In this document: piece by piece, positions 272 to 52,307 of the stretch
Position numbering within the stretch: position 1 is the stretch's first letter
How the letters are laid out: the number at the start of each line of letters is the position of its first letter
Source: Escherichia phage Ptacy1479
Length of the DNA: 64,000 nucleotides
Reading direction: 5' to 3' (one strand)
Sequence record: PQ863256.1
Translations under genes and position numbers: made by a program
Notes under the pieces: generated by a model
Told to the model about the DNA's origin: nothing
The model's input: the letters and a program-made list of their open reading frames with translations, nothing else
Database searches by the model: none

Positions 272-763
272 ATGGATAACGTCGCATTGCCACCTGTACA
301 ATTAAACTTAAGCCCAGCTGGAATGGAATTCATCATGAAGCATGAGGGTATGAGAACCAAGGCTTATAAAGATTCCGCAGGTATCTGGACGATATGTGTA
401 GGGGCTACGCGCGATATGAATGGTTATCCGGTTAGGCAAGGATTAACATATTCTATAGAGGATTGTCTAGCTCTGCTAGATAGAGACACACAAGACTCTG
501 TTCGTGCTACTCAGAAAAACATAAGGGTTCCTTTGCTAGTTCATGAATTTGATGCACTCACATCCTTCAATTTCAATGTTGGGGGCGGTGCACTAAGCAC
601 ATCTAAGCTGAGGAAAGTTATCAATGGAGAAGTTAAGGGTGACATATACTCAGAGTTTCTTCGTTGGGATAAAATTACGGTGAAAGGAAAGAAGCAGAGA
701 AGTCAGGGTCTTCATAACAGAAGGGTTGCGGAAGCTGATCTTTATACCGAAGGTAAATATTAA
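272..763 (+). CDS. endolysin, phage lysozyme (GH24, lambda R / P22 gp19 / T4 e type)
   Basis: Motif HEGMRTKAYKDSAGIWTICVG matches the lysozyme catalytic region (E...D...T); FNFNVGGGAL and RRVAEADLY segments; strong RBS GAAAGGAGG. Confidence 0.85.
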   Translation: MDNVALPPVQLNLSPAGMEFIMKHEGMRTKAYKDSAGIWTICVGATRDMNGYPVRQGLTYSIEDCLALLDRDTQDSVRATQKNIRVPLLVHEFDALTSFNFNVGGGALSTSKLRKVINGEVKGDIYSEFLRWDKITVKGKKQRSQGLHNRRVAEADLYTEGKY

Positions 764-775
764 TGGAGGTGCCTT

Positions 776-1579
776 TTGGCTATTGAAACTAATGCGGTCG
801 TCATTACTGACCTGAACCCGCTCTATCCCAGAGATAGGGATTATATCTACGAAGGGGCGGCTCAAATCCGCCTCATCAAACAAACACTAAAGAACACATT
901 CCCTAATGTCACTGAACCTGTTGAGATTGATTCTGATACCTTTAAGATCATGTCAGAGAAACTCAAATTTACCGGTGATGCAATGGATGTTGGCGGTCTT
1001 ATGATTAAGAACGCTGCTCCGGGAACTGGAGATAAAGATGTTGTTACTAAAGGCCAGATGGAGGCTTTTATGAACAACTGGATGGAAAATAAAGTATTCC
1101 GTATTGGGTCTTACTATATCACTGAAGAAGATGTTAATCCAGGTGATTCTGTCTCTCTTGGATTTGGCTCTTGGGCTAAAGTTACTGGCGTTATCATGGG
1201 TACTGGTGTGGTCAACCCTGATGGTACAGTTCCTAATGCCTCTAGGGTTGAGTTTACTTCTGGGGCTACTGGTGGTAGGATCTTCAACACAGTTCAGACA
1301 GAGAACTTACCGTTGATGACTATTAATGGTTCGAGCTTTTCTGTTTCCAGTAACACTCACGCACACAACATTAACTTTGGTCGTGGGGATGCTAGCGGTC
1401 ACAACAGTTCCCCTAACTGGTATAGTCCCGGTTCTGGATTTACCCACAGAACAGAGTCTGATACTCACACCCACACAATATCTGGTTCTGTTAGTTTTGG
1501 ACGTGACGACATATCTCGTCAACCTATTAACACTTTGCCACCATTCAGAGCGGCTCATATTTGGAGACGTATTAGCTAA
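776..1579 (+). CDS. tail fibre / virion structural protein with His-rich C-terminal HxH motifs
   Basis: TTG start 6 nt after GGAGGT; C-terminus THAHNINFG...SDTHTHTISGS resembles metal-binding HxH motifs of phage fibre proteins; function tentative. Confidence 0.4.
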   Translation: MAIETNAVVITDLNPLYPRDRDYIYEGAAQIRLIKQTLKNTFPNVTEPVEIDSDTFKIMSEKLKFTGDAMDVGGLMIKNAAPGTGDKDVVTKGQMEAFMNNWMENKVFRIGSYYITEEDVNPGDSVSLGFGSWAKVTGVIMGTGVVNPDGTVPNASRVEFTSGATGGRIFNTVQTENLPLMTINGSSFSVSSNTHAHNINFGRGDASGHNSSPNWYSPGSGFTHRTESDTHTHTISGSVSFGRDDISRQPINTLPPFRAAHIWRRIS

Positions 1580-1588
1580 GGAGGAATT

Positions 1589-4500
1589 ATGGCGTTGTAT
1601 CCAATAAAATCACTCGGTGCTGTCGGTGTTATTGCTGACCAAGCACCTACTGATTTAGCTCCTAATGCTTTCACTAACGCTATAAACGCTCGGTTTGTTG
1701 AGCAGAGAGTTTTTAAGACGGGGGGCAACGCCCCTCTTTCTTACGTAGATGAAGATAAAGATTTAACTCCTCTGTCTTTCATATCTATGCCTTTCGATTA
1801 CTATAGTGCAGGTAATAGCTTTCTTATTGTAGGCACTGACAAGAAGCTATATAAACTGACAGATGAAAGCTTGACTGATATCAGCAGAAAAGTCGCTACG
1901 GTGACTAAAAAAGCCTCTGCTACTATCAAAATATATCCTGTAGTCTCTAAGATTACCCCTAAAGAGTCTACTATTTCCATGAACTTCAATCAAACTAAAT
2001 CTTTAGAAGTTACAATCTCTCCGGAAGATGCTAATAACCCTGAACTTGTTTGGAGTGTTAGTAACTCTTCTTACGGTCAGGTTACTGTAGACCCTACTGA
2101 CTCTAAGAAAGCCTCTTTGACCTCTTTGAATAAAGAAGGCAATCTTGTAGTGACAGTCCAGACTAAGGATGAATCTGTATCAGCTCAGATTGCTGTCAAC
2201 ATCATCGATGGGGATTCAGGTATTTTCTTGAGTCAAGATACCATAACCGTTCGTAAAGGTGGGAATACCACGATAACTGCGGTGACTGGTAAGACTCCTG
2301 TAAGTTGGTCTACTACCAATGGTTCTATCGTTTCTGTGACCCCTAATGCTAACACACTCACGGCAGTACTTGTAGCTAATGGAGAAGGGACAGCAACTAT
2401 TACAGCGGATAATGGAACAAAAGCTGCATCATGTGTTGTTAATGTAATCCCACAGATTGATAGCATCACTCTGAGCCAAACAGATGTTACCATTAACAGA
2501 GGGACTCAATATATCCTTACAGCTACAGTATCTCCAACGAATGCTCCTAATAAAAACATAACATGGACTTCCTCTAACCCGAATATTGCTACAGTATCTG
2601 GTACAGGTACAGAGGCAACCATTACTGCGATTACAGCTGGCTTCACTGAGATTACCGCTACTACTCAAGAAGGCAACAGAACCGCTGTCTGTATAGTTCG
2701 TGTAGATTTGTCTGGAAGGATGATGAGAACCTCTCTTATGGCTACGTCTTCTACTGAACCAGATGCTCCAGAAGTGGTTGAGGATATAGTAGTTCCTGAG
2801 TCAGAAGAGGTTTTGTATTTTGCATCACCTTCCTCTGGGATATATACTACTGGAATGTCTGAAGGAAATAGCTTCTATGATTACTCAAACGTGGATGACA
2901 TGGAGGGTTTTGCAAGAGCTTCTCTTTTTGCCACCCCTTTAGATTCTGTAACGTTAGATGTAGTTAGTGCTTCTCTGGATGTAGGGGAGGAGATTGTTAT
3001 TACAGCTACAGCTTCTCCAGAGGGTGATTATTCTTACTTGTGGTCTGTGGATAAGACTGGGTATGTCTCCACTACTTCTGTAACTGGCAAGTCTATCAAA
3101 CTTACAGCTCTTCGTAAAGGTGAGATTAACATAACATGTTCTGTCAGTCAAATGACGCAGAGGGATTATGATGCGTTTGATGATTACCCTTGGTATCATG
3201 CTGTTATATCAAACTGTGTTGTTGCTACCACTCACTATGAAACCCCTCAAGTAAAAGAGTTCGAATCTGAATATTTTACCGATCTTCCGGGATGGGGAGA
3301 ACAAACAGTAGTGGATAACGATGGGAACCCCTCGGTTAAGAAGTTCAACTGGAAGTGTGAAAGGGTTCGCTCTTTTAATAACAGACTCTTTGCTCTGAAT
3401 ATGAGGGAGTCAAACGCTTCTGGTGTTACAACTAACTACCCGCTTCGTCTTCGTTGGTCTAATTTTGCTAATGAGAACAAAGCTCCTACTCTGTGGGATG
3501 ACTTTGCCTATGATCGTTTAGTAACATCTGACTTGGCTTCGAACATAGTGGGACAGACTGAGGCTCTAGAAAATGGTTATGCTGGTTACATTGATTTAGC
3601 AGACTCTAACGGGAGTTTAATTGATATCCTACCTCTTAAAGATTACTTATTCGTTTACACAGAGTTTGAAACGTATATTGGTTCTCCAACTAATAACACG
3701 TACCAACCACTGATGTTCAAGAAACTCTTTAATGATTCTGGTATCCTTGCCCCAGAGTGTGTAGTAGAAGTTGAAGGCAGTCATTTCGTTGTTACTCAGA
3801 ATGATGTGATCTTGCATAATGGTGCAACTAAGAAGTCAATTGCTTCCAACCGTGTTAAGAATATGTTGATTAACGAGATATGTCTGGTCAACCCGTTAGC
3901 TACCAGAGTTCACTTACATCAAGATAAAAAGGAGGTTTGGATTCTTTATGTAGGTCCGGGAGAGCCTAAGGAAAGCTATGCTTGTACTAAAGCCGCTGTA
4001 TGGAATTATGAGTTTGATACTTGGTCTTTCCGTACTATTCCTTATGCCCAATGCATCGGTTTGGTTGATCCTCCTGTTCTTGAAAGAGGTCCAATTTGGG
4101 CTGACTTCCAAGAGATTTCTTGGGATGACCCATCAATCAAGGAGCTTGTCTGGAGAAAAGATGCAACAAACTTCCGTCAGAGGATAACCATAGTAGGTTC
4201 TTTCTTACGTGGATTCTATCAAGTGGATATTGGTGCTTTAGATTATTTCTATGATAGGCTCAATGACACTGTTATAGAAAAACCCTTGGAGATGAGGTTA
4301 GAGAGAACAGGCATTGATTTTGATAACGTCACTAATGAATGGAATCAGAAGCATGTCAACAGATTCAGACCTCAAACCACAGGTTCTGGGACTTACATAT
4401 TCGAAGCAGGAGGTAGTCAATTCTCAAACGAATATGGTCATCCACACACATCTAAAACATACACAATCGGTGTTGATAGGCATGTCTCTGTGAGACTGAA

Positions 4501-29010: not shown

Positions 29011-29755
29011 TATGAAAATTTCCGTTCTGTTAAAAAGTATATAACTTCACTATCTGGAGACCGAACTTTCTCTCCATTTACTAATTTCTTAGCATCTTCA
29101 TATGAAGCACAATCCAAAGCAGGGTTATCAGGTGTTGGCTTCCCTAGGAAATATTTCCAAGTCCAACGCTCTCCGTCATCATCTTGACAGTCAAGAGTCC
29201 ACAATGTTTTCATTTAACAACCTTAAATTTGAATGTTGTTGGGTGATAATAGTGCAACCTGTTGATAGTATGCTTTGTTTCAAGGTATGTCCTACAGGAG
29301 TGGCACATAACATGAGACAAACCAGTCACAGGATTGGGCTTAAAATTGATGATAAGCTTCTCTTTCTTACAGAAGCTACAGACTTTCTTTTCCATCTTTT
29401 CTCCAGTGGTCAACGAATTGCTGAAACACTTTATGGTCGAAGGTGAAACCACGAGCAATCCCACACTCTACGAAAGTAGAAGGCATATAGTCTACATCAC
29501 CTTTAGATGTATGACCATAAACTTGAATAAGCTTTTTAATCTTACCCTTCTCTCTTCGAGGAAGCATCCTAAATGCCTCCTGAATATCTGTAATATGTTT
29601 GACTTTCATCAGAAATTCCTGCTAATCCTCTGGATTATGAGAACAGCAATACTCACATACTCCGCAACATGGACAAATTTCTACACTTGGGTCATATGCA
29701 TCATCCACTGTCATTCCGCACTTGGTACAGAACACGTCGTCATCTTCTTCCAATA

Positions 29756-30412
29756 TTAAATCTCCAATGTTTTCTTCAGAGCTGCCCACGAGATTGGGTA
29801 GATCTTAGTCATCTCTTCGTCTACAGATTTAGCAAACACTCGAACTTCATATTGAGCGTGAGAGGAGAGTCGCTGACGACACAACTCAAACCAGCCATAC
29901 AAAGAACCGGTCCACACCCACTCAGTGATCATCCCCTGAGGAAGAACAAATCGAGCTTGCTCTGGTGCAATAAATTCAATCAACTTGTCATATGCTGCTA
30001 GAGAAGCTTCATATGCATCATTAATCAGCATTAATGCTTCAGCTCGTTCTCCGTCGATGAGTTGAATCCCTGAACCTGCATGGAGGTCCGAAGGTCTCGC
30101 AAAAATCTCTTTAGGGATGAAGACTTCAACTGCTCCATCTTTATACCGCCGGGACATTTCGTTCCACGAGAATCCAACCTGATGCTTGCCCAACTGTCTC
30201 GCAATTGCGATAGGTGCTTTGCATCGGAAACTGACTTGCGGGTGTCGGAATGGGGTAACATGCTTCTCTCTTGCGAGGAAGTTGATGAGACGTTCATCAC
30301 GTTCATTTAAATCACCTTCACGGGTTACGCCAAAGGAAACTCGAGCTGCGTTTACTACGCTACGATCACTTCCCATAGCTTCGATTAATGTTGCTTGTAA
30401 TTGTTCATTCAT
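29756..30412 (-). CDS. thyX: flavin-dependent thymidylate synthase (ThyX-like, divergent)
   Basis: HVTPFRHPQVSFRCKAPIAIARQLGKHQVGFSWNEMSRRY parallels the ThyX core with the RHR triad replaced by KHQ. Confidence 0.55.
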   Translation of the reverse strand: MNEQLQATLIEAMGSDRSVVNAARVSFGVTREGDLNERDERLINFLAREKHVTPFRHPQVSFRCKAPIAIARQLGKHQVGFSWNEMSRRYKDGAVEVFIPKEIFARPSDLHAGSGIQLIDGERAEALMLINDAYEASLAAYDKLIEFIAPEQARFVLPQGMITEWVWTGSLYGWFELCRQRLSSHAQYEVRVFAKSVDEEMTKIYPISWAALKKTLEI

Positions 30413-50866: not shown

Positions 50867-51148
50867 CTACCACTCCTTACCGGTCGTAGTCGTAGAACCA
50901 CCACACCACTGCGCATCTGACAAGGTTTTAGTTTCCTCATCTACTGCTGCACCGTTCAGGCATGAGATACCATTGTAACGCATATCAATTTCACCAGAAG
51001 GAACCTTCTCGCCTTTGTGCCAACGAGAAACACAAACACCTTCCACTGCTACTGCACACCATCCATCAGGACGGCTCTGTACGCAGCCTGTAAGGGCCAC
51101 ACAGACAAGGAAGATACAGATTAAGGATATTACACCACCCCAACTCAT
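50867..51148 (-). CDS. lipoprotein (candidate superinfection-exclusion or envelope protein)
   Basis: Signal peptide with lipobox LTGC (ISLICIFLVCVALTGC). Confidence 0.45.
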   Translation of the reverse strand: MSWGGVISLICIFLVCVALTGCVQSRPDGWCAVAVEGVCVSRWHKGEKVPSGEIDMRYNGISCLNGAAVDEETKTLSDAQWCGGSTTTTGKEW

Positions 51149-51160
51149 AACTACCTCCGA

Positions 51161-51409
51161 TTACATATTGAGAGCCAATTCTGCGTTCTTATAAACTACA
51201 CAGCGGCTGTTGTCAGAGAAGGTATCTAAGGATACAGCGTAACCTTCTTTCATATCCAGAACCCCCTCGAAAGGTTTACCTCTAAGATTACCGGTAATCT
51301 TCATATACAAACCCACCTCTCTTCCATTGAGTTCAAGGATAGAGAAAGGTACATTGAATGGGGTTTCTTTAAATGGAACAGTTGGTTTTGAACCTTCTTT
51401 GAATTTCAT
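51161..51409 (-). CDS. small protein, possible divergent member of the ~80 aa family
   Basis: Start at internal Met 51409 (GAGG RBS); ILELNGREVGLYMKITGNLRG segment. Confidence 0.3.
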   Translation of the reverse strand: MKFKEGSKPTVPFKETPFNVPFSILELNGREVGLYMKITGNLRGKPFEGVLDMKEGYAVSLDTFSDNSRCVVYKNAELALNM

Positions 51410-51426
51410 ATCAACCTCTTGGAATG

Positions 51427-51505
51427 TGGTGCGCCCTACAGGACTCGAACCTGTAACCAATAGCTTAGAAGTAAAGTTTCTATCCTTGTAATGAAGTTTT
51501 CATTG
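51427..51505 (-). other. tRNA-like 3' fragment or pseudo-tRNA (T-arm, acceptor 3' strand and CCA only)
   Basis: - strand ...ACAGG-TTCGAGT-CCTGT-AGGGCGC-A-CCA has a good T-arm and CCA; no complementary 5' acceptor strand or anticodon stem could be folded. Confidence 0.25.
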
Positions 51506-51580
51506 TGGCGTTCCCTCGTGGAATCGAACCACGAATAAGAGCTTAGAAGGCTCCAGTTATATCCGTTTAACTAAGGGAAC
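51506..51580 (-). tRNA. tRNA-Arg(UCU): tRNA-Arg (anticodon UCU)
   Basis: Manual fold: acceptor GTTCCCT/AGGGAAC, D-stem GTTA/TAAC, anticodon stem GGAGC/GCTCT with loop CTTCTAA, T-arm CGTGG-TTCGATT-CCACG, discriminator G, encoded CCA; 75 nt. Confidence 0.8.
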
Positions 51581-51586
51581 ATTACA

Positions 51587-51943
51587 ATGAAAACTTGCAC
51601 AACCTGTCACACCCAAAAGGAAGATTCAGATTTTTACAAGAAAGGAGATCGACTTCATTCTATGTGTAAACAATGCTTCAATGCCTACTGTATTGAACGT
51701 TGGAGACAAAGAAAGACTCAAGCGGTTAAAGATTTCGGAGGTAAATGTCATGACTGCAATCAAGAGTACCCAGATGCAGTCTTTGATTTCCACCACCTAG
51801 ACCCTTCTGAAAAAGATTTTGATTGGAATAAACTAAGACTCCGATCTATTGACTCTATCAGAGAGGAGTTAAGCAAGTGCGTAATGCTCTGTGCTAACTG
51901 TCACCGTATTCGTCACATCGATTGCTCTATACAATTGAGCTAA
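51587..51943 (+). CDS. HNH homing-type endonuclease
   Basis: Cys/His-rich MKTCTTCH...CKQCF...HHLDP...CANCHRIRH; lone + strand gene next to tRNA. Confidence 0.6.
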   Translation: MKTCTTCHTQKEDSDFYKKGDRLHSMCKQCFNAYCIERWRQRKTQAVKDFGGKCHDCNQEYPDAVFDFHHLDPSEKDFDWNKLRLRSIDSIREELSKCVMLCANCHRIRHIDCSIQLS

Positions 51944-51957
51944 CGGCGCAGGGTTAT

Positions 51958-52158
51958 TTAGATCATATCTCGCTTGGTGATATGACCACATGTTTTACAT
52001 CGAAGTATATAACGAGTTCCTGTACTTTCCAGTTTACCAAACTCATTGTATGTATTTAAACTAACCGCTTTGATTGTCTCCCACTCATGGAGGTGGAATA
52101 GGTATTTAAACCACTTGATCATGTCATGAACCTTTGATAGAAAAGGATATAGCTTCAT
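51958..52158 (-). CDS. hypothetical protein (CxxC-containing)
   Basis: 66 aa ORF with RCKTCGH. Confidence 0.25.
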   Translation of the reverse strand: MKLYPFLSKVHDMIKWFKYLFHLHEWETIKAVSLNTYNEFGKLESTGTRYILRCKTCGHITKRDMI

Positions 52159-52307
52159 TTAGGGAACGAAACCGTCCAACATACTGACCTGCGGCAGAGG
52201 TTACAACAAACCACTGACCTATAAGAGTGATTCCTGCAATCCGTCGGTTATCTTTATCAGCCACTCTCCAGTAGTCTTTGTGGATTTGCTTTACATTCAT
52301 ACCAACC

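Follow-up and report, generated by a model that had tools for sequence, protein, structure and literature searches.

A resident tRNA-Arg(UCU) gene is split by a 451-bp insert

We analysed a 64,000-nucleotide (nt) stretch of DNA from Escherichia phage Ptacy1479 (PQ863256.1), referred to here as the window, in which a transfer RNA (tRNA) gene is interrupted by a cassette containing a second tRNA gene and an HNH endonuclease gene. The window is a Kuravirus (phiEco32-like) genome, and the region of the locus matches 74 GenBank phage records, those among the matches listed being phiEco32-like coliphages of the Gordonclarkvirinae and mostly members of Kuravirus. Kuraviruses have been reported to carry a single tRNA per genome (PMC9965538). 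At the locus, a resident tRNA-Arg(UCU) gene on the minus strand spans 51427..51949 and is broken by a 451-base-pair (bp) insert at 51472..51922, which carries a complete tRNA-Arg(UCU) gene on the tRNA-sense strand and, antisense to it, the HNH gene.

The organization of the empty site is evident in seven relatives that lack the HNH gene (WFI101126, phiEco32, SkaterBoy_Bas90 [SkaterBoy], SR02, EP335, SDYTW1 and ES17), where one intact tRNA-Arg(UCU) gene lies between a small conserved open reading frame (ORF) and a phage lipoprotein gene. The intact gene of WFI101126 has the sequence GCGCTCTTAGCTCAATGGATAGAGCA-GTAGC-CTTCTAAGCTATTGGTTACAGGTTCGAGTCCTGTAGGGCGCACCA. Its segment from CTTCTAAGC to the CCA is found unchanged in the window at 51427..51471 (minus strand; 45/45 positions), and corresponds to the 3' half of the resident tRNA from the anticodon loop to the CCA (nt 32–76). 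The 5' half (nt 1–27, comprising the acceptor strand, the D-arm, nt 26 and one further base), GCGCCGTTAGCTCAATTGTATAGAGCA, is at 51923..51949 on the minus strand and aligns with intact kuravirus alleles; this segment, which in WFI101126 runs through AGAGCA, lies antisense beneath the end of the HNH gene, such that the antisense of the resident D-arm supplies the last HNH codons and the stop codon. The GTAGC between the two segments (nt 27–31, the 5' strand of the anticodon stem) is replaced by the insert. The split-gene structure is essentially certain, and the two halves left by the cassette are dead.

The two halves correspond to different resident alleles. Allele C of SDYTW1 is the nearest match to the 5' half (GCGCCGT...AATTGTAT...) and the 3' half is that of allele A, carried by WFI101126 and Bas90 (phiEco32 has allele B), with the result that the acceptor strands of the window's halves mispair, G6 standing opposite G67. 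Such a pattern is what gene conversion would leave in a recipient that carried another allele. The 3' half is also present in the three other GenBank phages with the cassette, with no mismatches to the window in Ptacy1532 or TH38 and two in Bas92.

We considered whether the halves could be joined at the RNA level, through an intron or as a split tRNA, to give a functional second tRNA-Arg. Group I introns occur in the anticodon loops of bacterial tRNAs, and in two related contigs described below (L082 and L083) the acceptor strands of the halves are fully complementary (7/7). However, the 5' anticodon-stem strand (nt 27–31) is missing, the window's halves derive from different alleles and mispair, and the HNH gene runs antisense to the tRNA. 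When run with intron search and at lowered thresholds, ARAGORN returned no credible second, composite or intron-containing tRNA, its low-threshold calls being noise, and Rfam in permissive mode (E up to 10) reported for 51000..52200 the tRNA alone and no intron, transfer-messenger RNA or other family. We regard RNA-level joining as extremely unlikely. A group I intron with an intron-encoded endonuclease was rejected as a candidate, there being no ribozyme core and no exons that rejoin, as was integrase-mediated insertion at a tRNA attachment site: the insert lacks an integrase ORF, the resident gene is not restored, and the carried tRNA is not a repeat of the 3' half.

The original prediction took the complete tRNA to be the original gene and the adjacent fragment at 51427..51505 to be a decayed second tRNA or recombination scar beside the cassette. 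Its description of the fragment was accurate, in that a T-arm, a 3' acceptor strand and CCA are retained; past 51471 the fragment consists of filler and the left arm of an inverted repeat. Two families of direct repeats with a spacing of 78–79 nt link the fragment to the called tRNA (74% and 92% identity), as might be expected of a tandem-duplication scar next to an intact original gene, with the HNH gene beside rather than within it. The empty-site comparison contradicts this account: in HNH-less WFI101126 the 3' half of the resident allele has the same sequence as the fragment, the matching 5' half, which had been overlooked, lies beyond the HNH gene, and the called tRNA is foreign, being 91% identical to that of a Klebsiella phage, and is the incoming replacement. 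We therefore consider the duplication account very unlikely. The comparison with HNH-less relatives that had been proposed for defining the insertion boundaries places the element at 51472..51922, inside the resident gene.

The insert encodes a replacement tRNA

The complete replacement tRNA-Arg(UCU) is at 51506..51580 on the minus strand, and the fold predicted for it is accepted both by ARAGORN (TCT anticodon) and by the Rfam tRNA model (59.3 bits, the gathering score being 29). Its cloverleaf is normal, with a UCU anticodon, and it is the single tRNA called by ARAGORN in the whole window. In its acceptor stem, D-arm and upper anticodon stem it is unlike every resident allele, and most positions between nt 10 and 31 differ from allele A. 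Its nearest relative in GenBank phages is a tRNA-Arg in the tRNA cluster of Klebsiella phage KP12 (Vequintavirinae), with 90.7% identity. Across all cassette copies compared, the tRNA and the repeat arms together show 0/103 differences, a higher conservation than that of synonymous positions in the HNH gene. The insert ends on the right, as read on the minus strand, with a filler, CATTACAAGGATAGAAACTTTA (51472..51493), which stands in place of nt 27–31 of the resident tRNA. Homologous filler is present in relatives, with a GGATAGA/GGTTAGA-type motif before the 3' half in L078, L079 and L083 and more diverged sequence in L077, L081 and L082.

It had been proposed that the tRNA may support late-gene translation, AGA being a rare codon in E. 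coli, and codon counts bear this out: AGA accounts for 18.9% of Arg codons in 41 long ORFs of the phage (10.5 per 1000 codons), and for 26.7% in the plus-strand late block (13.5 per 1000). Such AGA-rich genes imply that the phage needs a tRNA-Arg(UCU). The role was previously known for the group, AGA usage in YF01 being about 20% compared with 3.6% in E. coli K-12 (PMC9965538).

In KBNP1711 and XT18 the type of tRNA-Arg(UCU) that is elsewhere linked to the HNH gene (GTCCCTATAGTTAAAAGGATATAAC..; allele D) stands alone at the locus, with neither an HNH gene nor tRNA remnants. This could be the end state reached after loss of the nuclease gene from a cassette.

The HNH protein has an invariant catalytic motif and is under selection

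The HNH ORF (51587..51943, plus strand) encodes 118 amino acids and matches PHROG 2255 'HNH endonuclease' (E = 3e-31). In an alignment of the window protein with six relatives, residues C54, C57, H69, H70, C102, N104, C105, H106 and H110 are invariant, a set that comprises two CxxC pairs, an HH pair, an Asn and a final His. A profile built from this family alignment matches the HNH domains of two PDB entries, 6me0 (a group II intron maturase, E = 0.004) and 6ghc (McrA). The family thus has the HNH (beta-beta-alpha-metal) catalytic motif with zinc-binding cysteines; its matches are all to HNH families, with none to a GIY-YIG catalytic domain, and the initial assignment as an HNH endonuclease stands on the PHROG match, the invariant motif and the matches to HNH domains in the PDB.

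Over a 110-codon core, the Bas92 gene differs from that of the window by eight synonymous and no non-synonymous changes and the TH38 gene by seven and none, a sum of 15 to 0. The other 11 copies are identical to the window over this 330-nt core, and the ORF is intact in 14/14 copies. These sequence comparisons show purifying selection on the HNH protein.

The HNH ATG (51587..51589) is 6 nt past the tRNA, and a TAAGG at 51572..51576 (plus strand), read in the antisense of the 5' acceptor strand of the replacement tRNA, resembles a Shine-Dalgarno sequence and probably serves as one for the HNH ORF. The same arrangement is repeated in the related contigs L078, L079 and L081 (TAAGGGAAC or AAGAGGAC).

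The cassette is sporadically distributed and its history differs from that of its flanks

The cassette is present in 3 of the 74 GenBank records that match the region (Ptacy1532, TH38 and Bas92) and in 10 short metagenome contigs in ENA with differing flanks, giving 14 copies with that of the window. The metagenome copies were found through a 116-amino-acid HNH variant (P0001), the exact 118-amino-acid protein of the window not being on record; scans of IMG/VR and JGI metagenomes with exact patterns for the cassette junction and the replacement tRNA returned nothing. The insert sequences in the three GenBank phages and the 10 contigs are identical or have HNH differences that are synonymous only. 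With this sporadic presence, and with an uninterrupted tRNA gene in all seven relatives sampled, the earlier description of a homing-endonuclease-associated tRNA cassette holds, and the cassette is absent from most relatives.

Comparisons of individual copies indicate that the element and its surroundings have separate histories. Between the window and Ptacy1532 there are no mismatches over 51427..51916 (490 nt), and then 4/33 mismatches in the 5' half and 6/21 and 3/8 in the adjoining spacers; the left flank is 82% identical, and the flanks overall are 82–97% identical. In TH38, homology extends over 51423..51949, the span of the split tRNA, and adjoining sequences are unaligned on both sides. 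The metagenome copies combine two types of upstream spacer with two types of downstream sequence. The 490-nt identity, the chimeric halves and the flank combinations all show the element's phylogeny to be decoupled from that of its flanks, and these comparisons suggest that the insert is a mobile element whose neighbouring tRNA halves can derive from different resident alleles.

The same flanks could be explained differently if the HNH gene had been inserted once, no longer homes, and is an inherited relic, the hypervariable region having given rise to the differing flanks by ordinary recombination. Just downstream of the tRNA there is indeed a general indel hotspot (see below), and we found no promoter for the HNH gene. 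However, the 15 synonymous and no non-synonymous changes and the intact ORF in all 14 copies are not what a relic would be expected to show; moreover, the tract of exact identity stops at the tRNA boundaries, and the layout is kept in relatives with as little as 61% protein identity, which points to a functional element under long-term selection. We consider a relic improbable, and favour an element that is still mobile.

Related cassettes interrupt tRNA-Arg genes in other phages

A protein search identified HNH relatives with 61–70% identity, of which we examined those on six contigs (L077, L078, L079, L081, L082 and L083). In 6/6 the HNH gene is antisense to its neighbours, and an orphan 5' half consisting of the acceptor strand and D-arm lies directly against the HNH stop codon in all but L078, which has about 190 nt between the two. 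The break follows the D-stem at about nt 26, and an orphan 3' half from the anticodon loop lies beyond the HNH start. A complete tRNA-Arg(UCU) is located a few bases from the HNH start codon in L078, L079, L081 and L082. In L083 the position of the replacement tRNA is occupied by a tRNA-like piece (about 1110..1190, minus strand) that is not called by ARAGORN. In this piece an anticodon stem-loop (CCAGA-CTTCTAA-TCTGG), a T-arm and CCA can be recognised together with a long variable region, but no D-arm. L077 (Logan ERR15402133, a 77.8-kb contig) has a split tRNA-Arg and antisense HNH gene at 1390..1860 without a replacement tRNA, about 90 nt of AT-rich filler being present where this would be; the phage has either lost the AGA tRNA function or has a copy elsewhere.

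Similar arrangements extend to relatives with 46–55% identity. In one contig (L031) the HNH C-terminus is antisense over a D-arm and a divergent tRNA-Arg lies 4 nt from the start codon, and in another (L010) a 5' half is fused directly to a complete tRNA-Arg that is followed by the antisense HNH gene. A more distant example is an unannotated 140-amino-acid HNH ORF in KP12 (L005, 2562..2984, minus strand), which has the same architecture with 31% identity and is situated between tRNA-Leu and tRNA-Arg genes; it abuts the tRNA-Arg, and remnants of further tRNA-Arg genes are found on either side: upstream there is a partial tRNA whose anticodon stem-loop is that of Arg(UCU), and a 3' tRNA remnant directly follows the tRNA-Arg.

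The closest named relatives of the HNH protein, at 52% identity, are genes in the tRNA clusters of FelixO1-like phages (Felixounavirus). FelixO1 ORF45 (Felix01p088) shares with the window gene the MKTC start and a location directly after a tRNA 3' remnant; it differs in being co-oriented with the tRNAs and in having no adjacent tRNA-Arg(UCU). The annotated N-terminus of ORF45 (MRVRVLPPRPILDEI..) is a translated tRNA 3' remnant (GGTTCGAGTCCTGCCGCCTCGACCA; L004, 2456..2500, plus strand), and translation probably starts further downstream, at ATGAAAACT (MKTC), as in the window's HNH gene.

An independent cassette occupies the same resident tRNA gene in YF01 (L008, 1694..2230, minus strand), where the gene is broken after nt 30 (..AGAGCAGTAG|GAGGTGA..). 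Here the sense strand encodes an HNH_3-type ORF (24.2 bits, the Pfam cut-off being 24.8), with a different complete tRNA-Arg(UCU) after it. As annotated, this ORF begins with a read-through of the tRNA remnant; its translation probably starts instead at the ATG that follows GGAGGTGA. That two unrelated nucleases reside in the same tRNA gene, each with a spare tRNA, points to the tRNA gene as the target and the spare as compensation; we regard this comparison as strong circumstantial evidence for both roles.

An inverted repeat flanks the replacement tRNA

The replacement tRNA is bracketed by an inverted repeat whose left arm, AAGTTTTCATTGT, is at 51494..51506 and whose right arm, ACAATGAAAACTT, is at 51584..51596. 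The repeat had been noted at 11 bp with the right arm overlapping the HNH start codon; the repeat and the overlap with the ATG are real, and its length is greater, with 13 perfect bases. It is present in 14/14 cassette copies, and is the sole perfect inverted repeat of at least 11 nt with arms no more than 120 nt apart in the 64 kb, mononucleotide shuffles giving about 0.65 such 12-mers per window. As anticipated, it is linked to the presence of the HNH gene, the tRNA flanks in HNH-less kuraviruses being different and unpaired.

We considered how the repeat arose and whether it functions. The right arm is probably the original copy, since FelixO1 ORF45 also starts with ATGAAAACTTG (MKTC); L078, a relative with 70% identity, has homologous filler without the extra bases that form the left arm. 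The repeat is probably a derived feature, and these comparisons suggest a templated copy made at the palindromic acceptor stem. On the minus strand, a fold in which the repeat helix stacks on the acceptor stem has a predicted energy of -43.4 kcal/mol (z -4.8), and the corresponding plus-strand fold one of -45.1 kcal/mol (z -6.7). The predicted helix would bury the AUG on the HNH sense strand, and on the tRNA strand would pair the leader with the trailer.

The repeat may throttle HNH translation, aid tRNA processing or do nothing. That it is a functionless 13-bp scar, left when repair at the palindromic acceptor stem produced a snap-back templated copy of the 5' end of the HNH gene, falls a little short of probable in our judgement. 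Such a scar would account for a right arm that matches the ancestral HNH start and for the missing left-arm bases in L078; the invariance of the repeat among copies is statistically uninformative by itself, as about 0.6 changes are expected per lineage. It would not by itself account for a stable helix that extends the acceptor stem on either strand, or for the burial of the AUG on the HNH sense strand, which is reminiscent of the T4 homing-endonuclease genes (I-TevI), where a structure that buries the start codon regulates expression. We also rejected the possibility that the arms are the ends of a small tRNA-carrying transposon: the repeat is missing from relatives of the same layout, and no target duplications are present.

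A model for homing with rescue of tRNA function

We consider it likely that the locus is a free-standing HNH homing-endonuclease cassette residing inside the tRNA-Arg(UCU) gene, which cuts intact resident genes and brings with it a replacement that is not cut. The proposed cleavage-and-homing mechanism is well supported by comparison, and draws on the established behaviour of free-standing phage homing endonucleases, notably T4 SegB. During co-infection, a phage without the cassette would have its intact tRNA-Arg gene cut or nicked by the HNH enzyme close to where the D-stem meets the anticodon stem, and recombinational repair would then copy the cassette from the donor genome, with the tRNA halves and the conserved neighbouring ORFs providing homology. 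The donor would be shielded from cutting by the divergent sequence of its tRNA and by the split in the old gene, and the carried tRNA would preserve AGA decoding such that the cost to the host phage is low.

The early leftward transcript would run through the antisense HNH gene and give rise to the replacement tRNA. We found no terminator-like site between the upstream genes and the tRNA, so that the tRNA is presumably cut from this transcript, which would also carry antisense HNH RNA. HNH expression is probably low, given that there is no recognisable promoter, that the putative ribosome-binding site is in the antisense of the acceptor stem, and that the AUG would be in the 13-bp helix.

Several observations weigh against this reading. 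No Pfam model, HNH included, reaches its cut-off for the window's HNH protein, although relatives come near the cut-off. No sigma-70-type plus-strand promoter was found upstream of the HNH gene, where weak hexamer pairs were inspected by eye and rejected, and the phage gp36 motif TAATGTATA has no occurrence near the gene. The split tRNA and HNH gene without a replacement tRNA in L077 indicate that rescue is not obligatory. Finally, identical cassettes in different flanks could also be explained by nuclease-free homologous recombination at a hotspot.

A broader interpretation, which we offer tentatively as possible, is that these cassettes constitute an old and widespread lineage of natural 'home-and-rescue' elements. 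Their antisense HNH enzyme would be specialised to break phage tRNA-Arg(UCU) genes at the D-stem/anticodon-stem junction, and would be interlocked with a cut-resistant rescue tRNA whose acceptor-stem antisense provides the ribosome-binding site of the nuclease; such elements would move between unrelated phage groups and drive the diversity of kuravirus tRNA alleles. The single kuravirus tRNA locus has at least six very different tRNA-Arg(UCU) sequences, and homing of this kind would explain these alleles together with the assorted tRNA fragments found there. The name recalls synthetic 'home-and-rescue' or 'cleave-and-rescue' gene drives, which are engineered Cas9 systems in insects. The likeness is one of functional analogy, a nuclease directed against a useful gene being linked in both to a recoded, cut-resistant copy; the cassette differs in being natural, protein-guided and in phages. 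The drive design thus apparently exists naturally here, for an RNA gene.

The presumed target, TTAGCTCAGTTGGATAGAGCA, is common to the resident phage alleles up to the break point and is also present in argU, the host tRNA-Arg(UCU) gene, of E. coli K-12 (L085, 124..200). The HNH enzyme may thus cut argU too; if so, infected cells and competing phages would become dependent on the tRNA of the element.

Relationship to known systems

Homing endonuclease genes usually spare their host by being intergenic or by residing in self-splicing introns or inteins. The cassette appears to follow a third route, predicted from its structure, in which the target gene is destroyed and a working, uncuttable copy is carried. 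Homing endonucleases in phage tRNA clusters are already known from T4 SegB and the T5 HNH enzymes, as is the splitting of a gene in Aeh1. In T2L, T4 SegB has its cleavage site within the tRNA-Asn gene, and it drives the inheritance of the tRNA region of T4 (PMC2330249). SegB resembles the enzyme proposed here in being a free-standing phage endonuclease encoded among tRNA genes, with its target in the tRNA gene of a related phage and with neighbouring tRNAs carried along. It differs in being a GIY-YIG enzyme whose gene is intergenic and splits no gene, in recognising a T-psi-C motif, and in having no dedicated replacement tRNA of the same anticodon.

The tRNA region of T5 contains several HNH genes, two of which, hegC and hegD, have 3' ends that overlap with tRNA genes or pseudogenes; hegA, hegC and hegD correspond to the HNH endonucleases F-TflI/II/IV, as cited in PMC2330249. 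These genes are likewise interleaved with phage tRNA genes, although they are co-oriented with the tRNAs and there is no description for them of a resident tRNA gene that is split and accompanied by a rescue copy. They were rejected as close homologues of the window's HNH gene, the best BLASTP match (hegA, E = 0.027) being at the level of the motif only.

Friedrich et al. are said to have described in 2007 an insertion of mobE that splits nrdA in Aeromonas phage Aeh1. As in the cassette, a free-standing HNH homing endonuclease gene is inside a functional gene and breaks it; in Aeh1, however, the protein pieces reassemble into an active enzyme, whereas here the tRNA halves are dead and function comes from a second gene in the insert. 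MobE is also mentioned in PMC2330249. In the literature available to us, a limited library in which absence is not proof, we found no description of a split tRNA or HNH-tRNA cassette in kuraviruses, nor of an antisense HNH lineage inserted at a fixed point of a tRNA body with a replacement tRNA of the same anticodon. The paper on YF01 and other kuraviruses reports the single tRNA, AGA usage and four HNH domains, and no homing or split gene (PMC9965538).

Kuraviruses are used as therapeutic coliphages, and 'tRNA pseudogenes' and odd ends of HNH ORFs in phage annotations can be interpreted as insertion scars. Bas92, with the cassette, and Bas90, without it, are apparently from the same phage collection and offer a small, tractable pair for a study of homing.

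Neighbouring genes and additional observations

On the right, the locus is flanked by the small conserved ORF (51958..52158, minus strand; phrog_8294, E = 4e-22), a homologue of which adjoins the tRNA in WFI101126, Ptacy1532, YF01 and XT18. On the left, the conserved flank is the phage lipoprotein gene (50867..51148, minus strand; Pfam PF24052, E = 2.8e-36), which in relatives starts about 20 nt past the tRNA. The segment immediately 3' of the tRNA is an indel hotspot, where the window has an orphan ORF, some phages have a tRNA-like piece of about 115 nt, and SR02 has an additional ORF. The orphan ORF (51161..51412, minus strand; MKFKEGSKPTVPF...) has 83 codons and a plausible ribosome-binding site, and is situated between the tRNA 3' half and the lipoprotein gene; it has no match in Pfam, in PHROG or by tblastn against the phage collection, and is absent from every relative examined. 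XT18 additionally has two ORFs without known function upstream of the tRNA locus.

The conserved piece of about 115 nt (GGGCTAGTATGGGTGCGG...GGTTCGATTCCAGATAGTCCACCA) is directly downstream of the tRNA locus in SkaterBoy_Bas90 (L061, about 350..470, minus strand), SR02 (L062), EP335 (L064), TH38 (L007, about 1570..1685) and YF01 (L008, about 1570..1690). It has a good T-arm and ends with a 3' acceptor strand and CCA, which forms six of seven acceptor pairs with its own 5' end. It is not called by ARAGORN or Rfam and has a fold z-score of just -2; it may be another disrupted tRNA or a tRNA-like RNA.

The HNH gene had been described as the only plus-strand gene in about 45 kb. This is roughly right, as long ORFs are on the minus strand from 16278 to about 62843, with one exception at 29349..29759. 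This 136-amino-acid ORF on the plus strand starts with ATG inside the long minus-strand block, is overlapped by no long minus-strand ORF, and has no match in Pfam or PHROG. If it is a real gene, the HNH gene is not the sole plus-strand gene of this stretch.

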